Notes: generated from the letters alone by a model not told the origin. 64,000 nt of DNA from Chloroflexota bacterium (GCA_947479915.1 CANKAU010000010.1:2033-66032); one strand, 5' to 3'; counted from the first letter of the stretch, positions 1 through 56,233 are shown. Numbers and translations: made by a program.

Positions 1-2773
<2,773 letters not shown>

Positions 2774-3193
2774 GCTCGGTACTCGCCGGTTGGAGATCAC
2801 AATTCGACGGTCAGTGGTCACAGACGCTCCCCTCAACAGTCCCGGTCGCGGGATTCCACGCGCCGGCGGGCTCGCTGCTCAGTACGGCTTCCGGCGTCGG
2901 TCCCCGGTGTTCGGGGCCGGCCGGTGCGGGCACGCATCTCGGTTGGATTTTGGGGATTGTCTGAGAGTGTCTCCACGATCGACGGCGCAGGCCCGCGATC
3001 TACTGAGCACGACTCCCCAGGACACATCTCCGGGACATGGCAACACCCCGAACGGCCGCCAGCCGTCGAGGGTCATCTGAAGTTAACCGCGATTTCGTTT
3101 GCGCCCCACGCATCAATCAGTGTACTGCGCCCGAGCAGAATCTCAACCGTACGCCGGGGGCACCCCTTGGTCAACCTGCCGGGTCGCTGATTG

Positions 3194-4447
3194 CTACCGG
3201 GCGGGGGTCCCCGTTGCCCCCGCGCCCGTCGAGGCGGCCGCGGTCCCGCTCGGTTGTGCGGCGGGCTGGCTCGGCGGCGCGGTCGCCGCGGGCTGCGAGG
3301 CAGCCTCCTTCGCCTTCTTCTGGCGAAGCTCCTCGGCGGCGATTGGGTCGTAGCGGCGGTTCACGGTGGTCTCCCACACCGGCCACGACTCCTTCGGCTT
3401 GTCGCCGATGTCTCGCAGGCCGAGGCTGGCGAGCAGGTCGTATGGCGGCGCGGTGGCGAACGACAGGTCGCGCTCGGCAAACCACACCACGAGGGGCGAG
3501 CCGAGGAAGTCGGCGTCCTCGAACAGGCGCAGCAGGAAGCGGCGCTGCTCCGCCGGGGTCGACGAGTTCAGGTTGTCGCGTCCCGGACCGGAGGCGTACC
3601 CGGCGCCGACGAAGGCGATCGGCAGCGGCGTCTGCTCCCGAATTGCCGAGTAGTAGGTCGGCGGCACCTTCCGCGCGACGTTGAAGGCGAACGACGGGTA
3701 GGTGGTGATGCCGACCGCGTCCATCTTCCCCTGGAAGTCCTTCAGCAACTGCCAGCGGGGCGGATGCGGTGGCAGGTCCGGGATCACGCCCAGCAGTTCC
3801 TCGTACTGGAACGAGGGGAGCACCTGCGTCTCGGGGGCGGCCGCCTTCACGGCGTCGTAGGCCTCCTTGTACGCGGTCACGTAGGAGAGGTACGTCCCCG
3901 GGTTCCGCTCGAACGTTGCGTTCACCTCGTTCCCGAGCACGAGGTACGCGGGGCGCAGGTTCCTCGCGATGAACACCGCCTCCTGCACGAAGGCTGTGCG
4001 GAGCTCCGCGTTGGAGAGGTCCTTACCCGCGAGCGTCGGCGGCAGCCGCTGGAGTTTGTCGCGCGCGGTCGGGTCGAACGGGTCGAGGACGATCGCGACT
4101 TGCAGCCCGCGGCTCTTCGCGGCATCGCGCACCGTGGTCAGCTCGTGCCGCACGTCGTCCGAGGCGGTAGCGCCGGGCACGAAGTCGGCCCAGTTCGGCG
4201 AGCGCTGCACGAGGATCAGCTCCCCGTAGTTCGCGGCGAGGTCGTAGGTCTGCCGCGTGCCGAGGTCGGTGAGCGCCCAGGGCGTGTCCGAGAATCCGAG
4301 GAGGTACGAGCGCGGCTCGCCCGCCTCCTGCCTCGGTCGTTTCGTGAACGAAGAGCCGCCCGTGGACTCGGTGCGGCAGGCGCTCGCCAGCACCGCCACT
4401 AGGGTCAGCGCCAGCAGTGCGAGGGAGATCCGGGATCGCGGGGGCAT
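3194..4447 (-). CDS. secreted putative glycoside-hydrolase-like TIM-barrel protein with a Pro/Ala/Thr-rich C-terminal tail
   Basis: 417-aa ORF. N-terminal signal peptide MPPRSRISLALLALTLVAVLASAC. An LVLGNEVN motif resembles the catalytic NE(V/P) of clan GH-A hydrolases. Low-complexity tail. Confidence 0.5.
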   Translation of the reverse strand: MPPRSRISLALLALTLVAVLASACRTESTGGSSFTKRPRQEAGEPRSYLLGFSDTPWALTDLGTRQTYDLAANYGELILVQRSPNWADFVPGATASDDVRHELTTVRDAAKSRGLQVAIVLDPFDPTARDKLQRLPPTLAGKDLSNAELRTAFVQEAVFIARNLRPAYLVLGNEVNATFERNPGTYLSYVTAYKEAYDAVKAAAPETQVLPSFQYEELLGVIPDLPPHPPRWQLLKDFQGKMDAVGITTYPSFAFNVARKVPPTYYSAIREQTPLPIAFVGAGYASGPGRDNLNSSTPAEQRRFLLRLFEDADFLGSPLVVWFAERDLSFATAPPYDLLASLGLRDIGDKPKESWPVWETTVNRRYDPIAAEELRQKKAKEAASQPAATAPPSQPAAQPSGTAAASTGAGATGTPAR

Positions 4448-4585
4448 TGTCTCGATGATACCCGGCCCGTTCGGTTCAGACCTGCGTCCTGCCGCCCCGA
4501 TCGCGGGGTTTCCCGCGTAAGCCCCCCATCAGCGCCTTCCGAGGATCCCGGTACCCACCACAGAGGGTGACGACGGGAGCCTGAG

Positions 4586-4810
4586 ATGGCGTTCATGACC
4601 ACCGACGACCTGCTGCTCGAGTTGCACTGGGTGACCTCGCGCTCTGATGCGCGCGCGATGATCAGCCGCGCCGCGCGCATCGCCGGCGTGGCGACCGGGC
4701 GACCGCTCGAGGTGCGTGAGCTGCTGATGGTGTGCGAGGCGCTGGCGGCCGAAGGTGGCGCGATCCAGGTGCTCGCTGAGTCAGTGGCGACGCGGGCGCT
4801 CCGCGACTAG
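4586..4810 (+). CDS. hypothetical small protein (74 aa)
   Basis: ORF only, no recognisable motif; convergent with the next gene. Confidence 0.25.
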   Translation: MAFMTTDDLLLELHWVTSRSDARAMISRAARIAGVATGRPLEVRELLMVCEALAAEGGAIQVLAESVATRALRD

Positions 4811-4817
4811 CGGCTGA

Positions 4818-5273
4818 CTAGCGGTTGTCGTCGGCGAAGATCGTGTCGCGGGCGACGTCGCCCCACGAGAAGAGTGCCGCCGCGAAGCGGATTCCGCCGC
4901 TGCGATCGTTCAGCGCTTCGAGTGGCAGCGCGGACAGGTAGGTCCGCACGCGCTCCTCGACGCCTGACTCCTCGTAGAACTCGATGGGGCGGAACACCCC
5001 GAAGGTCGTCGAGGCGATCGGCTGGCCGCCCGGCTCCGCGCAGGCGATTGCGAGTGCCATCTGGTCGATGCCATACGGCCGGCGACTCGCGGCGATGCGG
5101 GCGCGTGCCCACGTGATCACCTGGTCGGCGAGCTGCTCGATGTCCTCGCGCCCCAGCGGCGCAGTGCCCAGCAGCCACTCCTGCTTGGAGAGGCCCGTGC
5201 CCCGGCGAATGGAGTCCTCCACGCGAGTTCGCAGCGGATCGGGGCGGAACCTACGGAGCAGTGCGCTCAACAT
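4818..5273 (-). CDS. hypothetical protein (151 aa)
   Basis: ORF in a host-like high-GC frame; no motif recognised. Confidence 0.4.
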   Translation of the reverse strand: MLSALLRRFRPDPLRTRVEDSIRRGTGLSKQEWLLGTAPLGREDIEQLADQVITWARARIAASRRPYGIDQMALAIACAEPGGQPIASTTFGVFRPIEFYEESGVEERVRTYLSALPLEALNDRSGGIRFAAALFSWGDVARDTIFADDNR

Positions 5274-5478
5274 GGTCCCTCCTCTCTCCGCGCTCCCGCG
5301 CGACTCATTCGGCGTGTGGCGCCGTTCCCCATGTCGGGGAAACCCTCACGCCGATCATCGACGTCTTCCGGCCACTCATCAGGCACCTGACAGGTCTTTT
5401 CACACCATCTGTTTGCGCAATCCTGCTGACGCTTCGGTCCGTTCGAGGCGCTTCGGTGGATGTGTAGACTTTTCGGTA

Positions 5479-5934
5479 ATGGACAGTGCATACGAAGTCG
5501 ATCTGGACGGGCTCCTCCGCGCCGTGGAGCGCTCCGACCACGTCATCGTGCGGTTCTCGGCACTCGCCGAGCGTCTGTTCCTCGACTTCCGCACCCGCGA
5601 GGGCGAAGGCCCCGGCGTGTTCGTGCTCCCCATGGCGAGCACGATCCAGGAGCGCCTCGCCACGATCGCCGCGGCGAGGCCGCATTTTCCGCGGCCGGAC
5701 AAGCTGCACGTGATGGCGTGGCCGCTTCGCGTCGCCGGGCTGGAGCGCCTTGGCTTCCTGGAGGCGGCGCGGCAGCGACTGGCCGGTCTCGATGCGTTCG
5801 AGCAGGTGCGCGACCTCGACCGCGCGTTTCGCGACCTGCAGCGCGCCGAGGACCTGGAGCTCCGTAGTGCGATCACCGGCGAGGGCTACCGCACGATCTG
5901 GCCCGGCCGTCCCAGCGCCGACCTCGACGCGTAG
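5479..5934 (+). CDS. hypothetical protein (151 aa)
   Basis: ORF starting at the ATG at 5479 (MDSAYEVDLDGLL...), immediately upstream of the metallopeptidase gene and co-directional with it. Confidence 0.45.
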   Translation: MDSAYEVDLDGLLRAVERSDHVIVRFSALAERLFLDFRTREGEGPGVFVLPMASTIQERLATIAAARPHFPRPDKLHVMAWPLRVAGLERLGFLEAARQRLAGLDAFEQVRDLDRAFRDLQRAEDLELRSAITGEGYRTIWPGRPSADLDA

Positions 5935-5949
5935 CGTGGGCAGCTAGCA

Positions 5950-6312
5950 GTGCAGCGCGACCGCTTCCGCCGTCTGGTGTTCCGGGCGATCGAGGATCTG
6001 CCGGCGGAGTTCCGGCGTTTTGTGCAGGACGTCGCGATCGTCGTGGAGCGCGAACCCTCCGCGGAGGATCTGCGTGAGGCCGGCCTTGAACCGGACGAGG
6101 ATCTCTTCGGGCTCTACGTGGGGATCCCGCTCACCGAGCGGCACGACCACCACATGGTGCTGCCGGATCGCATCCTGATCTTCCAGGGGCCGCACGAGCG
6201 CGCCTTCAGCGCCGACCGCCTCACCACCGAGATTCAGCGCACCGTTGCGCACGAGGTGGCCCACTTCTTCGGCATCGACGACGACCGCCTCGAGGCGCTC
6301 GGGCTCGGCTAG
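5950..6312 (+). CDS. metallopeptidase family protein (PF06262-like, HExxH)
   Basis: 120 aa with a C-terminal AHEVAHFFG HExxH zinc motif and a GIDDDRLE tail, typical of the small putative zinc-metallopeptidase family. Confidence 0.7.
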   Translation: MQRDRFRRLVFRAIEDLPAEFRRFVQDVAIVVEREPSAEDLREAGLEPDEDLFGLYVGIPLTERHDHHMVLPDRILIFQGPHERAFSADRLTTEIQRTVAHEVAHFFGIDDDRLEALGLG

Positions 6313-6338
6313 CGTCGCGGAACAGTCCGGACAAAACA

Positions 6339-6366
6339 GGAGCGCCGCCCGGGCGGGCGGCGCTCC
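6339..6366. terminator. bidirectional stem-loop between the convergent metallopeptidase and hup genes
   Basis: Perfect hairpin ggagcgccgccc-ggg-cgggcggcgctcc. Confidence 0.5.
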
Positions 6367-6422
6367 AAGGAATAGCTTCCGACACTCGACACTCCGAGGA
6401 GCGCCGAGGCGGCGGGTCGGAG

Positions 6423-6731
6423 CTATTTCGCCTTCGCGAGCTTGGGAGCCGGAGCCTCGCCGTTCACGATGGCCTTCAGGCCAGCGGCGGCGGAGAACTT
6501 CGGGGCCTTAGAGGCCTTCACCTTGATCTCGGCGCCCGTCTGCGGGTTGCGGCCGATGCGCGCCTTGCGGGCGGTGCGGCTGAACTTGCCGAGACCGGGG
6601 TACGCCACGTCCTCGCCGTTCTTGACCTTCGCCTGGATCACGTCACGGAAGCCGTCGAGCACGCGCTCGGCGTCCGCGTTCGTCGTGCCGGCCTGAGTCG
6701 CGACCAGCGTGACCAGCTCTGCCTTCGTCAT
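6423..6731 (-). CDS. hup: HU family DNA-binding protein
   Basis: MTKAELVTLVATQAGTTNADAERVLDGFRDVIQAKVKNGEDVAYPGLGKFSRTARKARIGRNPQTGAEIKVKASKAPKF is a classic HU/IHF fold sequence, with a Lys/Ala-rich tail. Confidence 0.9.
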   Translation of the reverse strand: MTKAELVTLVATQAGTTNADAERVLDGFRDVIQAKVKNGEDVAYPGLGKFSRTARKARIGRNPQTGAEIKVKASKAPKFSAAAGLKAIVNGEAPAPKLAKAK

Positions 6732-6962
6732 CTTCAACACCTCCGTAGGAGGCGCCCCCGCGATATATCGAAGCGCCTACGCACATCATCCTTTGTCATC
6801 ACGACCTTGGTGTCAAGGCCTGTTGTCCAGAATGGCAGATATTTACTGGAGATCGTCATCCGCAGTGCGTCCAAGACGCGCGAATGCTGGTGTTGGGGTG
6901 CAGAAGGTACGCGAAACCCGCGCTCAGACAGGTGATCCCGGAGCGCCGAGGACGAAGGGCCG

Positions 6963-8096
6963 CTAGTTGCGGCTGTTGAGTCTGTGGATAAGTCGCGCGG
7001 CGGCGGCCGTCGCGTGCTCTGCGGCGCGTGCCATTGCGGTCGGCCGGTCGGCCTCGGTCGGCGCGAGGGGCTCCGCGTCGAGGATGCGGGGGGACAGCCC
7101 TTCCACGATCCCGGCGACGGCGACGCACGGCACACCGGCCTCGGCGGCGAGCTGCGCGACATGCGCGACGGCCTTGCCGTAGCCCGTCTGCCCATCCATC
7201 GCACCTTCGCCGGTGATGACCAGGTCGGCTGCCTCGATCGCTGCGCGCAGGCCGATCGCGTCCGCGACGAGCGCCGCGCCGGACTCGATGCGCCCGCGGG
7301 GACACGCGGCGAGGAGGCCCGTAGGGATGCCGCCCCCCGCACCCGCGCCCGGCCGCCCGGCGACGTCCGAACTGACGTCCTCGCGCAGCCGGGTCGCCCA
7401 GCGGGCCAGCGCGGCATTCATCGCCGGGGCCTGCCAGTCGCGCACGCCCTTCTGCGCTCCGTACACGGCCGTCGCCCCGGCCTCGCCGAGGAGCGGGTTC
7501 TGTACGTCCACCGCGATCCGCAGGTCCAGCTCGCGCACCCCGGAGGCGCGGTCCGCTTGGACACGGGCGAGGCCGATGAGTGCGAGGCCGCCCAGGGCGA
7601 GCGGTGCACCGTTCGCGTCGAGGAGCCGCAGTCCGAGCGCGCGCGCGGCGCCGGCGCCGCCGTCGTTCGTGCCGGTGCCGCCCACGCCGACGATCACTTC
7701 GTGCGCGCCGCGGTTCAGCGCGTGCAGGATCTGCTCGCCCAGGCCGGTACTGGTGGCCCGGGCGGCATCGCGTCGATCAACGGGGACGAGGACGAGACCG
7801 GCGGCGGCCGCTGCCTCGATCACCGCGAGAATCGGCTCCCCGGGCCGTTCGAGGAGTGCGTAGGTCGCCTCAACGGGATCGCCCTGCGGGCCGGTGACGG
7901 TGTGGCGGATGAGCGTGGCGCCGGTCGCGTTCGCGACGATCGAGACGGTGCCGGGGCCACCGTCGGCCATGGGCAGTTCGATGACCTCGGCGTCGGGGAG
8001 CGCCTCCCGCACGCCGGCGGCGATCGCGGCTGCGGCGTCGAGTGGCGAGAGCGAGCCTTTGAACTCCTGCGGCGCGACGAGCACGCGCCGGGGCAC
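6963..8096 (-). CDS. glycerate kinase (GlxK/GarK family)
   Basis: VLVAPQEFKGSLS...GGPGTVS...VGVGGTGTNDGGAGAARALG...ITGEGAMDGQTGYGK are glycerate-kinase signature blocks. A likely GTG start at 8096 abuts the stop of the upstream small ORF. The 444-aa track ORF over-extends the N-terminus. Confidence 0.85.
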   Translation of the reverse strand: MPRRVLVAPQEFKGSLSPLDAAAAIAAGVREALPDAEVIELPMADGGPGTVSIVANATGATLIRHTVTGPQGDPVEATYALLERPGEPILAVIEAAAAAGLVLVPVDRRDAARATSTGLGEQILHALNRGAHEVIVGVGGTGTNDGGAGAARALGLRLLDANGAPLALGGLALIGLARVQADRASGVRELDLRIAVDVQNPLLGEAGATAVYGAQKGVRDWQAPAMNAALARWATRLREDVSSDVAGRPGAGAGGGIPTGLLAACPRGRIESGAALVADAIGLRAAIEAADLVITGEGAMDGQTGYGKAVAHVAQLAAEAGVPCVAVAGIVEGLSPRILDAEPLAPTEADRPTAMARAAEHATAAAARLIHRLNSRN

Positions 8097-52347: not shown

Positions 52348-53376
52348 TTAGGCCGACGGCGCGGTGCCGAGGCCCACGCGCGCGCCGCCTCGACGCGACT
52401 CGCGCCACGCGAGGCCGTCCGCGACGAGCGCCGCGAGCAGCCGCCGCGCGCGCTCCGGGTCGTCGAGGCCCGCCGTCGCGAGGCGCGTGAGCAGCGCGCG
52501 CTCGGTCACGCTCGCGCCGCCCTCGGCGTGCGCGTCGCGCAGCGCCTGCATCAGCGCGCCGCGCCACTGGCGATCCGATCCGTCGAAGCGGCCCTGCGCG
52601 CGCACCGGCTCGGCGGTCTCGCCCGCGGCGAAGCGCGGCCGAGCCGCGCAGATCGAGGCGATGACGCACGCCTCGCAGCGCGGGCGAGGGAGGCAGACGT
52701 GCCCGCCGTAGTCCATGAGCGCCGGGTTCCAGCGCGCGCCCTGCCCCGCGGGGAACAGCCGCGCCGCCGCCGCTTCGATGCGTGCCGTCGAGGTCTCTCG
52801 CGCCGGCTGCAGGTCGCCGTACACGACGCGCCCGATGACGCGGACGATGTTCGTGTCGATCGCGGGGGCGTCGTCGCCCCAGCCGAATGTGAGCACGATC
52901 GCCGCGGTGAACGGCCCCACCCCGGGCAGCGCGAGCAGCGCCGCGAGGTCGCGAGGCAGCCCGCCGCCGTGCCCGCCCTCTGCGACCGGGGCCATGCAGC
53001 GGATCGCCGTCTCGTGCAGCGCGACGGCGCGACGCGGGTAGCCCGCCCGCCCCCACACGCGCAGCACCTCCGCGCGGTCGGCCCGTGCGAGGGCGGCGAT
53101 CGTGGGGAACGCCGCCATCCAGCGCTCGTGGACCTCGATCACCCGCGCCATCTGCGTCTGCTGCGCGGCCACCGCCGCGACGAGCGCGGAGTACGGGTCG
53201 CCGCCCGTGCGCCACGCGAACGGCTGCTCGTGCTCGGCGTACCAGTCGAGCAGGCTTCGCCTGATTCGGCGCACGCGAGCGGGCGTCAGCGCATCGAGCG
53301 GTGTCGGCTCCGCGGGCACGGGCGTGGCGCGCGCGCGTGGCGACGCGGAGCGAGAGGTCGAGGGCTTCGGGGTCAC
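52348..53376 (-). CDS. mutY: A/G-specific adenine glycosylase-like HhH-GPD base-excision enzyme with 4Fe-4S loop
   Basis: LLDWYAEHEQPFAWR...LPGVGPFTAAIV...CLPRPRCEACVIASIC (FCL cluster loop). Start codon uncertain; no obvious NUDIX-type C-terminal domain. Confidence 0.75.
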   Translation of the reverse strand: MTPKPSTSRSASPRARATPVPAEPTPLDALTPARVRRIRRSLLDWYAEHEQPFAWRTGGDPYSALVAAVAAQQTQMARVIEVHERWMAAFPTIAALARADRAEVLRVWGRAGYPRRAVALHETAIRCMAPVAEGGHGGGLPRDLAALLALPGVGPFTAAIVLTFGWGDDAPAIDTNIVRVIGRVVYGDLQPARETSTARIEAAAARLFPAGQGARWNPALMDYGGHVCLPRPRCEACVIASICAARPRFAAGETAEPVRAQGRFDGSDRQWRGALMQALRDAHAEGGASVTERALLTRLATAGLDDPERARRLLAALVADGLAWRESRRGGARVGLGTAPSA

Positions 53377-53386
53377 GAGGACGAGG

Positions 53387-53626
53387 CTACTCGCCCGGCT
53401 CCACCACGCACCACCGCTCCAGGAACCCGGCGCGCCCGTACGACCTCGTGTCGGTCGGCACCGTCTCGTCGAGCTGCCGGAGCATCAGCGCGAGCTGCTG
53501 CCGTACGTACTCCACGTCCCCGCGCGTCCACTCCGCCGGCAGCCGCACTTCGACGCTCCGCCCCTCCTCGAGGGGGAAGCGCAGGAGGATGGTGGGTTCG
53601 GGGGTGGGAGAGGGTAGATCACTCAT
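53387..53626 (-). CDS. small protein (79 aa) translationally coupled to the DUF4062-domain gene
   Basis: The ATG lies inside an ATGAGTGA junction shared with the stop of the upstream gene. Sequence MSDLPSPTPEPTILLRFPLEEGRSVEVRLPAEWTRGDVEYVRQQL.... Host-like high GC. Confidence 0.45.
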   Translation of the reverse strand: MSDLPSPTPEPTILLRFPLEEGRSVEVRLPAEWTRGDVEYVRQQLALMLRQLDETVPTDTRSYGRAGFLERWCVVEPGE

Positions 53627-54716
53627 CGGACGTTTCGGGTTCCACGTTATCCTCAGGAACCGACGTGTCGGGGTCGGAAATGGAGGCGGTTCGCATTGCT
53701 CTGATCTGAGTCATGCGATGGTCACCATATGGAGTGAGCTTCCAGTAGGTGGACGTGTCCTTAACACTGCGAGATCTGACGCTCTCGGTGATGAGCCCCA
53801 ATGCGCGGAACTGGACCACACACGTGTCGATGCTCTTCTGCTCCACCTGGAAGCTCGTGGGCCTCCGACGCAGCAGCGCCGGCAGATCCTGAACCTTCTC
53901 GCGACAGATCGGTTCACAGAAGGCGAGCAGGGCGCCGCGGAGTTGGACGTCGCTTGCTTCGTTGATCAAAGTCGGCGACACAGCCACGAAGATTTCGTCC
54001 CACGTCACCGAAATGCTTGTTCGGAATCCTGTACGGACATAAGTGACCGGATCTACCGTCTGGAAGGTCATTCTGAGACTGAAGCTGTCGTCCCCACTGG
54101 CTAGGCCGTGGGCTTCAGGTGGAGCCGTCACACGAACATCGTTCAGCGACTTCTCGAGTTCCGCGATTCGGTTTCTCAAGGTCAGCACCTCGCCGATTGT
54201 CGCGTCGGTAGGAACTTGATCGGCACGGATCCACCCAGACGCCGGGGAGGCATTCACAGCGGCGATCAAGCCGAGAATCACCTTGGCTTCAAGCTCCTCT
54301 GCGGTAGCCCACAACGCGCAGTGGTGTCTTGATTCGACCTTCTTTCGGAAGACCTCAAGCTTCTGCCACGAGTCTTCGGTAGTCTCAGTCTTCTCTCTCG
54401 CCAGTTTCTCCGGGGAGCGATGTAAGAGCGCTATTACTGGCTTCTTCTGGGAAACGGCGTAGTCGTACTCCCGTTCCGTGTAGCCGACACCATCGCCGCC
54501 GAGCGATCCGTAGCGTCCGCCCATGATGAGGACGTAGTAGTCCGACTCGTCAATCACTCGCTGAATTAAAGACCACGCCGACTCGTCGGACGCAGGGAAA
54601 AGCTCCATCCCGGCGGGCATGTGGTTGGTGCCCAAGATGCCGCGGACGGCGGCTTGCCGTTCCTCGCGAAGATCGAGGAAGGTCGAACTCACGAAGACCT
54701 GAAAGCGCTTGTCCAT
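53619..54716 (-). CDS. DUF4062-like N-terminal domain protein with uncharacterised C-terminal domain, in a low-GC island
   Basis: MDKRFQVFVSSTFLDLREERQAAVRGILGTNHMPAGMELFPASDESAWSLIQRVIDESDYYVLIMGGRYG matches the DUF4062 (PF13271) signature (FxSSTFxDL...R, acidic ELF). GGAGG RBS 4 nt before the ATG. The 100-nt sample 54001-54100 is 53% GC versus 69% at 55001-55100 (hand counts), and third-position A/T codons are frequent, unlike neighbouring genes. Confidence 0.7.
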   Translation of the reverse strand: MDKRFQVFVSSTFLDLREERQAAVRGILGTNHMPAGMELFPASDESAWSLIQRVIDESDYYVLIMGGRYGSLGGDGVGYTEREYDYAVSQKKPVIALLHRSPEKLAREKTETTEDSWQKLEVFRKKVESRHHCALWATAEELEAKVILGLIAAVNASPASGWIRADQVPTDATIGEVLTLRNRIAELEKSLNDVRVTAPPEAHGLASGDDSFSLRMTFQTVDPVTYVRTGFRTSISVTWDEIFVAVSPTLINEASDVQLRGALLAFCEPICREKVQDLPALLRRRPTSFQVEQKSIDTCVVQFRALGLITESVRSRSVKDTSTYWKLTPYGDHRMTQIRAMRTASISDPDTSVPEDNVEPETSDE

Positions 54717-54889
54717 GAGGCCTCCGGAAGGCCAGAGTAGCACATAAGTGCGATTCTGGTCCTCTCCGCCCCACCCGCCCCCGTGCGATAATGGCGGCCG
54801 ATCGCGCCTCGCGCCGCTTGGGTGCGTCGCGGCGAGGCTGGGCGATCCTCGAGGACTGACGCACCCGCACTGACGCGGGGTTCTGACAC

Positions 54890-56233
54890 GTGACGACTGC
54901 TTCCACGGGTGCGGCACTGCCGCTGGCCCATGTCCTGCCGATCTCTGCCGAGGTGAACTCGGCGGGCCACCTTGCCATCGGCGGGTGCGATCTCCGCGAG
55001 CTGGCGGATCGCTTCGGCACGCCGCTCTATGTCTATGACACGGCCACGCTGCGCGCCCAGCTCCAGGGCTACCGGCAGGCCTTCACCGCCGCCTACCCGG
55101 ACAGCGAGCTGGTCTACGCCTCCAAGGCGTTCCTGAACCGCCCGTTCGCCCGCTTCGTCGCCTCGCAGGGGTTCGGGTTCGACGCCGTCTCCGCGGGGGA
55201 GATCGCCACGCTCGCCTCGGCGGGGGTGGACCTGGGGCGCGTCTACCTGCACGGCAACAACAAGACCCCGGACGAGCTGCGCTTCGCCGTGGAGCACGGC
55301 GTCGGCCGCATCGTCATCGACGGTGAGTGGGAGATCGAGCTCCTCGAACGCATCGCGCAGGACCTCGGGCGGCGCCAGCGCGTGCTGATCCGCGTCTCGC
55401 CGGGCATCGACGGGCACACGCACGAGAAGACCACGACGGGCATCCTGGACTCCAAGTTCGGCCTGCCGATCGTCACCGGCGCGGCGGAGCGCGCGATCCG
55501 CGCCATCGTCGCGTCGCCGCACCTCGAGTTCCGGGGCATCCACATGCACCTCGGCTCCCCGATCTTCGAGATGGAGCCCTACGCGCAGGCGATCGAGGTC
55601 ATGGCGGAGTTCATCGACGAGGTCGTGCGCAAGCAGATCGGCGTCGAGGTGCCGGAGTTCTCGCCCGGTGGCGGCTTCGCCGTCGCCTACCGCGACGACC
55701 AGCAGGCCCCCGCCTACGAGGCTTACGCCAGCGTCATCGCCAGCACGCTGAAGCGCGAGGCGGACGCGCGCGGCTTCGCGCTGCCGCACATCACGCTGGA
55801 GCCGGGCCGCAGCATCGTCGCGCGCGCGGGCATGGCCGTGTACACGGTCGGCGCGCGCAAGGAGGTGCCGGGCATCCGCACCTACGTCAGCGTGGACGGC
55901 GGCATGGCGGACAACCCCCGCGTCGCGCTCTACGGATCGCAGTACGAGGCCGTCCTGCCGGAGCGCCCGCTCGCCCCGAACGAGGAACTGGTCACGATCG
56001 CGGGCCGCTACTGCGAGTCTGGCGACATCCTGATCAAGGACATCGAGCTGCCTCGACTGCGCGCGGGCGAGCTGCTGGCGATGCCGGCTGCGGGCGCGTA
56101 CCAGGTGGCGATGGAGTCGAACTACAACATGGCGCTCCGCCCCGCGGTGGTCATGGTGGAGAACGGCCACGCGCGCCTCATCCGCCGCCGCCAGACGTTC
56201 GAGGACCTCGGCGCGCTGGACGTGGACGAGTAG
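54890..56233 (+). CDS. lysA: diaminopimelate decarboxylase
   Basis: Fold-III PLP decarboxylase motifs (YASKAF, GxDxxSxGE, EPGRSIV, CESGD); GTG start. Confidence 0.93.
   Translation: MTTASTGAALPLAHVLPISAEVNSAGHLAIGGCDLRELADRFGTPLYVYDTATLRAQLQGYRQAFTAAYPDSELVYASKAFLNRPFARFVASQGFGFDAVSAGEIATLASAGVDLGRVYLHGNNKTPDELRFAVEHGVGRIVIDGEWEIELLERIAQDLGRRQRVLIRVSPGIDGHTHEKTTTGILDSKFGLPIVTGAAERAIRAIVASPHLEFRGIHMHLGSPIFEMEPYAQAIEVMAEFIDEVVRKQIGVEVPEFSPGGGFAVAYRDDQQAPAYEAYASVIASTLKREADARGFALPHITLEPGRSIVARAGMAVYTVGARKEVPGIRTYVSVDGGMADNPRVALYGSQYEAVLPERPLAPNEELVTIAGRYCESGDILIKDIELPRLRAGELLAMPAAGAYQVAMESNYNMALRPAVVMVENGHARLIRRRQTFEDLGALDVDE

Follow-up and report, generated by a model that had tools for sequence, protein, structure and literature searches.

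We analyzed a 64,000-nucleotide stretch of a Chloroflexota bacterium assembly (GCA_947479915.1 CANKAU010000010.1:2033-66032; hereafter "the window," numbered from its first letter) and find that its minus-strand gene at 53619-54716, lying between a lysA-type gene and a mutY-like gene, is very probably a horizontally acquired, stand-alone anti-phage gene of the Swarozyc (Swz) family in a high-GC Dehalococcoidia genome. An earlier reading of the DNA alone (the sequence-only reading) had proposed this gene, alone or with a 79-amino-acid open reading frame (ORF) overlapping its stop codon, as a candidate novel defence, abortive-infection or signalling system. Defence by abortive infection is now the best reading, through homology to the Klebsiella pneumoniae protein KpSwz; the claim of novelty does not survive, as the family has already been described experimentally in two 2026 preprints (on Swarozyc and on Evangelion).

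The first of these preprints identifies DUF4062 as a TIR-like NAD+-hydrolyzing domain (NADase) and shows that single-gene DUF4062-AUX proteins, named Swarozyc, guard Escherichia coli against BASEL phages (bioRxiv 10.64898/2026.05.01.722283, May 2026). Defence by KpSwz requires its catalytic residue E97 and its AUX domain, and infection of cells carrying it depletes NAD+ and leads to abortive infection. The phage portal activates KpSwz and escape mutants fall in the portal, whose dodecamer takes up to 13 AUX domains through a heterogeneous and flexible interface comprising the winged-helix core, a hairpin anchor (W238/Y239) and an alpha-loop-beta module (bioRxiv 10.64898/2026.05.01.722283). The autoinhibited KpSwz dimer forms via the AB interface, not the AE interface; the products shown are ADP-ribose and nicotinamide, and TEP1-TIR, the human DUF4062 domain, made no other ADP-ribose derivatives (bioRxiv 10.64898/2026.05.01.722283). 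The second preprint describes Evangelion Eva01, a related lineage on staphylococcal plasmids, and places Swarozyc as its own DUF4062 lineage; Eva01 escape mutants lie in recombination genes, and Eva01 binds recombination-like DNA (bioRxiv 10.64898/2026.06.25.731849). KpSwz and Eva01 each function as a single gene (bioRxiv 10.64898/2026.05.01.722283; bioRxiv 10.64898/2026.06.25.731849).

Homology Places the Protein in the Swarozyc Lineage

The window gene encodes one protein of 365 amino acids (N terminus MDKRFQVFVSS), as the sequence-only reading had it apart from small corrections to the coordinates. The DUF4062 domain proposed for its N terminus is recovered by Pfam (PF13271) at residues 6-87 with an E value of 1.9e-27 and 95.7 bits (cutoff 24.7), over the full 82-position model; up to an E value of 1, DUF4062 is the only Pfam family found, with no match to TIR or TIR_2. 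The match to PHROG 15411 (E 1.3e-92) spans the whole protein. A phmmer search of the Protein Data Bank (PDB) gives the KpSwz DUF4062 protein as its sole match (entries 10wc, 11cq and 11cv; E 8.4e-59), in a collinear alignment of query residues 1-343 with chain residues 2-324, and a family profile built from 50 homologues finds KpSwz at E 1.2e-85. The C-terminal part, in which the sequence-only reading could place no motif, is by sequence a homologue of the KpSwz winged-helix AUX domain: a profile of the C-terminal 146 residues searched against all PDB sequences has its best match in KpSwz (residues 205-324, E 2.3e-9), with the runner-up at 0.037, and the same region as a single sequence has KpSwz as its sole PDB match (E 1.1e-3).

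More than 5,800 homologues are present in a database of 5.8 billion proteins, the best of them full-length and 50-57% identical, and the named or titled sources of the closest ones include Chloroflexi, Algiphilus, Neptunomonas, Roseiconus and Thermodesulfobacteriota. Searching 72,556 plasmids with tblastn separates the two lineages: ~200 Staphylococcus proteins of the Eva01 type match residues 4-165 only, whereas the match to an Acinetobacter junii plasmid protein extends over residues 1-342, which places the window protein in the Swarozyc lineage and not with Eva01. Over residues 4-165, up to the W162 region, the Eva01 core is ~40% identical, and the conserved catalytic E-Y region named in the Eva01 paper, which also names a Q/W/E motif, matches window residues E83-Y84. 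No alignment extends past residue 165, so the AUX regions are unrelated, and the window protein does not have a short AUX of the Eva01 type.

Three homologues whose neighbourhoods we examined (from another Chloroflexi metagenome-assembled genome [MAG], Algiphilus and Roseiconus) are stand-alone genes in defence or mobile-element contexts, as is characteristic of the Swarozyc family. One of the homologues adjoins a BglII-type restriction-modification system, antitoxins and IS21, and another lies amid transposases, HigBA pairs and Tn7-like genes. In Roseiconus lacunae (locus L067, surroundings at 1-5391 and 6001-7101) the homologue directly adjoins terminase (GpA) and portal genes of a prophage, at whose edge it is placed much as a moron would be; this is of note because the portal is the known Swarozyc trigger.

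A Foreign Gene Missing from Related Loci

As the sequence-only reading had noticed, the gene forms an island of low G+C content: the value for 53627-54720 is 0.584, and the lowest among 630 sliding 1098-bp segments over the 64 kb is 0.585, at 53601. The segments have a mean of 0.704 and a standard deviation of 0.027, so that the dip at the DUF4062 gene lies ~4.4 standard deviations under the mean. Of the hand counts offered earlier, 0.53 for 54001-54100 is exact, and the 69% given for 55001-55100 measures 0.71. The frequent A or T at third codon positions is likewise real, with a third-position G+C (GC3) of 0.71 vs. 0.91-0.97 in orf79 (the 79-amino-acid ORF), mutY, lysA, a metallo-beta-lactamase (MBL)-fold gene and an M16 peptidase gene.

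We scanned species-representative genomes with the MutY-like protein and obtained 52 loci, 50 of which belong to Dehalococcoidia or other Chloroflexota (MutY-like protein 54-80% identical, with conserved synteny) and two to distant Proteobacteria (28-30%); these matches identify the host lineage. In tblastn searches of six window proteins against all loci, Swz is absent from the same locus in 52 of 52, including L004, L005, L006 and L012. In the closest relatives, L004 and L005, the order is lysA, other cargo, orf79, mutY, with lysA 90-91% and mutY 79-80% identical to the window genes. Low G+C and GC3 and absence from the closest relatives' loci support horizontal acquisition, and the outcome that the sequence-only reading had named as speaking against it, the same gene at host-like G+C in the mutY-lysA region of all relatives, is not what these loci contain.

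Comparison of related loci also bears out an insertion between the mutY-like gene and lysA, in the form of a segment without counterpart (Table 1). In the alignment of the cargo-free locus L059 with the window, homology stops at 54779 and restarts at 53584, at about codon 14 of orf79; in multiple alignments, homology to relatives ends at ~54761-54779, past the conserved lysA leader, and 54717-54760 have no counterpart in relatives. For the two commonest variants, 32 contigs were read, drawn from several ENA, Logan and NCBI samples, and they carry near-identical copies of the gene; four variants of the protein are known from contigs, differing by no more than ~3 residues.

Domain Architecture and Conserved Residues

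An AlphaFold2 model built on a 50-sequence alignment (mean predicted local distance difference test score [pLDDT] 82.5) divides the protein into a TIR-like domain, a helical stalk and an AUX domain. In the TIR-like domain, strands at residues 6-11, 33-35, 60-65, 94-99 and 133-136 alternate with helices. Two helices are predicted in the linker and stalk region, at 139-156 and 174-195, the second of which corresponds to the coiled-coil-like segment of the sequence-only reading. The AUX model, with pLDDT ~88-96 over residues 211-340, consists of a beta-hairpin (211-238), a helical core and a winged helix-turn-helix (helix 293-305; wing strands 309-311 and 324-327). A TIR-like, SLOG-like or nucleoside 2-deoxyribosyltransferase (NDT)-like fold had been put forward for testing in residues 1-110, and the top Foldseek matches of the model in the PDB are indeed TIR domains (SPARTA TIR-APAZ, RPS4/RRS1, L6, SARM1, AbTir and BtpA) and the NDT-like proteins DNPH1/BcmB. 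Probabilities for the TIR-like fold are 0.99-1.0 with target TM-scores of 0.5-0.66, and over TIR domains and DNPH1/BcmB together the target TM-scores are 0.5-0.69 on single-domain targets; the PDB library used (entries to April 2026) predates the KpSwz entries, so that this search can confirm the TIR-like fold only.

The KpSwz chain in the PDB is the E97A mutant, and KpSwz numbering equals the chain index plus 13, an offset validated by D16, R18, D71, W176, W238 and Y239, all of which fall where the KpSwz paper names them. On this numbering the catalytic glutamate E97 (A97 in the chain) corresponds to window E83, and the residues with a role in the dimer or stalk correspond as D16 to D2, R18 to R4, W176 to W162 and, with a conservative change, D71 to E57. 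Neither E83 nor W162 varies in any of the 50 aligned homologues; W162 is part of an invariant linker motif, G161-W162-x-R164-A165, and all 76 invariant family positions are kept in the window protein. Identity to KpSwz is 47% over residues 1-130 and 32% over the linker and stalk (131-205). Mean column conservation falls from 0.83 in the TIR-like domain and 0.78 in the winged helix-turn-helix to 0.43 in the hairpin, 0.38 at the hairpin tip and 0.24 in the tail. We considered the tail as a read-through into host DNA and rejected this, since its GC3 of 0.68 is cargo-like and the tails of homologues are of similar length and unrelated sequence.

orf79 Is a Resident Host Gene

The stop/start junction of swz and orf79 reads GATGAGTGA, an overlap of 8 nt, and orf79 ends 10 nt ahead of the HhH-GPD/MutY-like gene; the overlap, the host-like composition of orf79 (GC3 0.91) and its place directly upstream of mutY are all as the sequence-only reading described them. 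That reading went on to propose a foreign one- or two-gene module; that the two ORFs form a translationally coupled module for defence or signalling we find very improbable. In its favour, the overlap (ATGAGTGA) is real and gene callers on independent contigs call both ORFs. Against it, the two genes differ in composition, at GC3 0.91 and 0.71, and the 16 clusters of orf79 homologues, 69-92% identical, have Chloroflexota as their single named source. Contigs of L004, L005, L056-L062 and P0132 carry orf79 upstream of mutY without swz, in other lineages none of the three swz homologues whose surroundings were inspected is followed by an orf79-like gene, and KpSwz and Eva01 act as single genes.

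The overlap itself recurs with unrelated cargo. Same-strand cargo genes end on or across the orf79 start in the window (53619-53626, 8 nt), in L004 (4443-4446, 4 nt) and in L005 (5457-5470, 14 nt), and since these three genes are unrelated, the overlap is a feature of the insertion point and not of swz; in L056 a 25-nt gap stands in place of an overlap. We conclude that orf79 is a resident host gene and that cargo inserted directly upstream of it gives the overlapping stop and start, which suggests that the insertion point, or selection keeping orf79-mutY expressed, fixes the junction at the orf79 start. Cargo that ends on the orf79 start codon may keep orf79-mutY expressed.

The dN/dS of orf79, 0.22-0.75 among six copies, is below 1, so it is probably a real gene. 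It has no match in Pfam, NCBIfam, PADLOC or PHROG, and its AlphaFold2 model, a beta-hairpin and a helix, has a pLDDT of 66.9, too weak for a fold search. The protein is specific to this Chloroflexota lineage, 72-85 amino acids long, with first 10-20 residues that vary and a strongly conserved core (LRFPLEEGR...LERWCVVEPGE), and its gene always lies upstream of the MutY-like gene, either directly or with one gene between (L056-L058).

A Variable Slot between lysA and orf79-mutY

The segment occupied by swz in the window holds other genes in related loci (Table 1). Cargo in the slot is mutually exclusive and mostly of low G+C, the gap having a G+C of 0.59-0.65 in L004, L005, L012, L037 and L039 vs. 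0.70-0.72 for the whole loci. In addition, L056-L058 and L060-L062 combine orf79 with further different cargo, and in L059 and P0132 contigs orf79-mutY lies ~390-410 bp from lysA with no cargo ORF. PADLOC gives no match for the cargo of L056, L060 and L037, the 326-amino-acid gene of L039 or the 124-amino-acid gene of L004, and cargo genes outside Pfam and PADLOC families are possible new defence or toxin components. Two cargo genes, the Schlafen/HATPase_c_4 gene of L005 (4057-5470) and the PDC-S34 gene of L012 (4819-5669), are each split over two frames, by decay or by MAG assembly errors.

The region between lysA and orf79-mutY is probably a small defence hotspot. It shares with known defence hotspots between core genes a single intergenic slot and mutually exclusive, low-GC cargo (restriction-modification, toxin-antitoxin, candidate defence and Swz genes). 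It differs from them in that no integrase, transposase or repeat boundary was found, in that each cargo amounts to just one to four genes in 1-2.5 kb and in that same-strand cargo abuts or overlaps the orf79 start. Within 6 kb of the window slot we found no integrase or transposase, and no convincing repeat flanks the slot. An imperfect 12-nt direct repeat, CTCCGCCCC[T/A]CC (11 of 12 positions matching), at 53556-53567 and 54764-54775 brackets the inserted segment; the copy nearer lysA falls in a stretch that several relatives share, and the one on the far side codes for conserved residues of orf79. We rejected this repeat as an att site and take it as probably coincidental, as by our estimate chance alone would produce ~15 matches of this quality in 1.7 kb of this base composition, and no recombinase gene is near.

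Table 1. Coordinates of the Swarozyc-type gene, its domains and flanks in the window, and contents of the equivalent slot in related loci
Feature	Position	Strand	Basis
Swarozyc-type gene (365 amino acids + stop)	53619..54716	-	ORF read from sequence
GGAGG ribosome-binding site	54721..54725	-	4 nt 5' of ATG, within cargo-specific sequence
TIR-like (DUF4062) catalytic domain, residues 1-136, five beta-alpha units	54309..54716	-	AlphaFold2 model, Foldseek, KpSwz alignment
Codon of Glu83, predicted catalytic residue (= KpSwz E97)	54468..54470	-	Alignment to E97A chain
Helix alpha-E, linker, stalk helix, residues 137-195	54132..54308	-	AlphaFold2 model, KpSwz alignment
AUX (sensor) domain, residues 200-343	53688..54119	-	AUX profile vs. 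PDB, AlphaFold2 model
AUX beta-hairpin, residues 211-238, most variable structured element	54003..54086	-	Column conservation
Acidic non-conserved C-terminal tail, residues 344-365	53622..53687	-	Conservation 0.24, pLDDT ~53-61
orf79, lineage-specific host gene directly upstream of mutY	53387..53626	-	GC3 0.91, homologue distribution
HhH-GPD/MutY-like DNA glycosylase (host flank)	52348..53376	-	Pfam HhH-GPD E 3.7e-13
lysA-type pyridoxal phosphate (PLP) decarboxylase (diaminopimelate-decarboxylase-type; host flank, divergent)	54890..56233	+	Pfam Orn_Arg_deC_N E 4.7e-53; Orn_DAP_Arg_deC E 2.4e-17
Variable (inserted) segment	53585..54778	.	BLASTN of cargo-free L059 vs. window; junction alignments
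SocA/Panacea antitoxin gene + overlapping 124-amino-acid gene (4072-4446)	L004 slot, 3362-4442		PF13274, E 1e-21
Schlafen AlbA_2/HATPase_c_4 gene, apparently frameshifted	L005 slot, 3901-5456		Pfam; PADLOC pAgo-associated domains
PADLOC candidate PDC-S34, apparently frameshifted	L012 slot, 4692-6000		E 4e-46
Type II methyltransferase + 326-amino-acid probable endonuclease (3717-4697)	L039 slot, 3531-6000		Methyltransferase E 8e-114
Three unassigned genes (3214-4975)	L056 slot, 3100-5000		G+C ~0.54-0.63
Four small unassigned genes	L060 slot, 1149-2718		No family match
Unassigned gene pair (4706-5514)	L037 slot, 4615-6000		No family match
lysA-mutY gap ~200 bp, no orf79 detected	L033, L036, L041		No room for cargo

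Flanking Genes and the lysA Leader

The MutY-like gene scores 162 bits against the TIGR01084 cutoff of 286.5, with a weak, sub-threshold match to the Fe-S motif; MutY models match residues ~38-247 only, and the C-terminal third contains no recognizable MutY domain. On the other side, lysA is 87-91% identical in the closest relatives and is preceded by a leader of ~110 nt (54779-54889, plus strand) that is conserved in eight relatives (88% identity between L059 and the window). The leader sequence includes TGCGATAAT, which may be an extended -10 element, and a GC-rich stretch predicted to fold into a hairpin. It has no Rfam match, and covariation is nearly absent, with 1 compensatory pair in 27, so that a regulatory RNA is no more than possible. 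An Rfam scan of 53000-55300 returns only a sub-threshold symR inside mutY (24.8 vs. 61 bits), which we take as chance.

Proposed Mechanism and Alternatives

By homology to KpSwz, the DUF4062 domain would be a TIR-like NADase with Glu83 as its catalytic residue. In uninfected cells the enzyme would be held off in head-to-head dimers or oligomers, formed by the N-terminal strand, helices alpha-A and alpha-B and the helical stalk, and the AUX domain, with its beta-hairpin and winged helix, would be the sensor. Binding of many AUX domains to a multimeric phage protein (in KpSwz, the portal dodecamer) would realign the stalks and render the TIR-like domains active, and the resulting hydrolysis of NAD+ would lead to abortive infection. 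NADase activity and abortive infection are both inferred here from KpSwz.

Several observations weigh against assigning the gene to a functional Swarozyc system. The protein shares only 36% of its aligned residues with KpSwz overall and 27% in the AUX domain, which is ~21 residues longer than that of KpSwz, 21 aligned positions being missing from the latter, and the aromatic portal anchor is not kept, W238 and Y239 being replaced by P223 and V224. Of the 50 aligned proteins the window copy diverges most, with 51% identity to the others vs. 60% among the others, and it deviates at 14 of the 132 columns that are at least 90% conserved, whereas the other copies do so at a median of 2 such columns and at no more than 8; this extra divergence could mean relaxed selection. 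A scan around the gene found no sigma-70-like promoter and no intrinsic terminator, and NAD+ hydrolysis and abortive infection have been demonstrated for KpSwz and related enterobacterial proteins only (bioRxiv 10.64898/2026.05.01.722283). Of the DefenseFinder/PADLOC search proposed in the sequence-only reading, PADLOC was run on both proteins; PADLOC 2.0 (2023) and NCBIfam return nothing for the 365- or the 79-amino-acid protein, a result that is uninformative because these databases are older than the family, and that explains why the gene looked new.

As the hairpin is variable and its tip anchor is not conserved, the surface that recognizes the trigger probably differs from that of KpSwz, and the trigger itself may differ; the loss of the anchor bears on the mode of portal binding, not on family membership. 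That the protein is a Swarozyc-type NADase responding to another phage protein, to another portal surface or to nucleic-acid intermediates, as proposed for Eva01, is a serious possibility that we nonetheless stop short of favouring. The P223/V224 tip points that way, as do the hairpin, which is the least conserved structured element (0.38-0.43), as for a diversifying recognition surface, and the winged-helix core, which could bind DNA, alongside the Eva01 escape mutants and DNA binding described above; on the other hand, the AUX domain has its homologue in KpSwz and not in Eva01, and the flexible KpSwz-portal interface also uses the alpha-loop-beta module, so that loss of the Trp-Tyr tip is compatible with portal sensing. 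Combined with the slot, this gives a tentative proposal that we consider rather unlikely as a whole: an undescribed micro-hotspot of high-GC Dehalococcoidia, in which recombination in the core genes on either side would exchange the cargo, no dedicated recombinase being involved, and a Swz trigger other than the KpSwz portal pocket.

Two further explanations deny the gene a present defence role. A decaying or silent remnant would account for the divergence and the 14 deviations, the lack of a recognizable promoter and the apparent frameshifts of cargo in the same slot of L005 and L012, but it is improbable for a full-length, intact ORF that keeps all 76 invariant positions with E83 and W162 among them, has a good ribosome-binding site, recurs in near-identical copies (up to ~3 residue differences) on 32 contigs from several samples and is modelled confidently in both folded domains. 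That it instead serves a housekeeping or regulatory function, perhaps as a winged-helix transcription factor that controls lysA or mutY, and owes its low G+C to something other than horizontal transfer, is scarcely credible: although its C-terminal domain is a winged helix and it lies between two housekeeping genes, probably on one transcript with orf79 and mutY, it is absent from all 52 scanned loci, its GC3 is at least 0.2 below that of every neighbouring gene, its closest protein relatives are found in unrelated phyla, with the three neighbourhoods examined being mobile or defence contexts, and the defence activity of the family has been demonstrated.

Discussion

The Swarozyc-type gene of the window shares with KpSwz the single-gene, three-part architecture of DUF4062/TIR-like domain, helical stalk and winged-helix AUX domain, the catalytic glutamate and the dimer and stalk residues, collinearity over residues 1-343, horizontal spread and placement among defence genes. 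It differs in having no Trp-Tyr hairpin anchor, a longer AUX domain and an acidic 22-residue tail, and its host is a high-GC Dehalococcoidia bacterium rather than an enterobacterium. With Eva01, of the Staphylococcus aureus plasmid pMW2 type, it has in common a single-gene DUF4062 organization for what would be abortive infection, NAD+ falling on infection in the Eva01 data, and Eva01 has been linked to phage recombination or replication functions rather than to the portal. Canonical TIR NADases (Thoeris ThsB, SPARTA TIR-APAZ, AbTir and SARM1) have the same flavodoxin-like, five-stranded beta-alpha fold and catalytic glutamate, and activation by oligomerization and abortive infection through NAD+ consumption would, by analogy, be further common features; the window protein has no Pfam TIR match, its sequence similarity to them being at the clan level only, and its gene has no partner such as ThsA or Argonaute. 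Specifically for Thoeris, no ThsA-like gene lies by the window gene, whose neighbours are lysA, orf79 and mutY, and PADLOC finds no match.

The Swarozyc family having been characterized in 2026, this case adds to it modestly, through its host among the Dehalococcoidia, its divergent sensor hairpin and a small cargo slot in which several occupants are unassigned. It extends the Swarozyc NADase family to uncultivated, high-GC Dehalococcoidia, in which phage defence is almost uncharted, and because PADLOC 2.0 and NCBIfam miss Swarozyc, orphan low-GC genes of this kind can now be given a name elsewhere. The unannotated low-GC cargo of the lysA/mutY slot includes a few genes worth considering as new defence or toxin-antitoxin systems, and the Swarozyc proteins, with their variable hairpin, lend themselves to comparing how a single sensor scaffold comes to recognize different targets.

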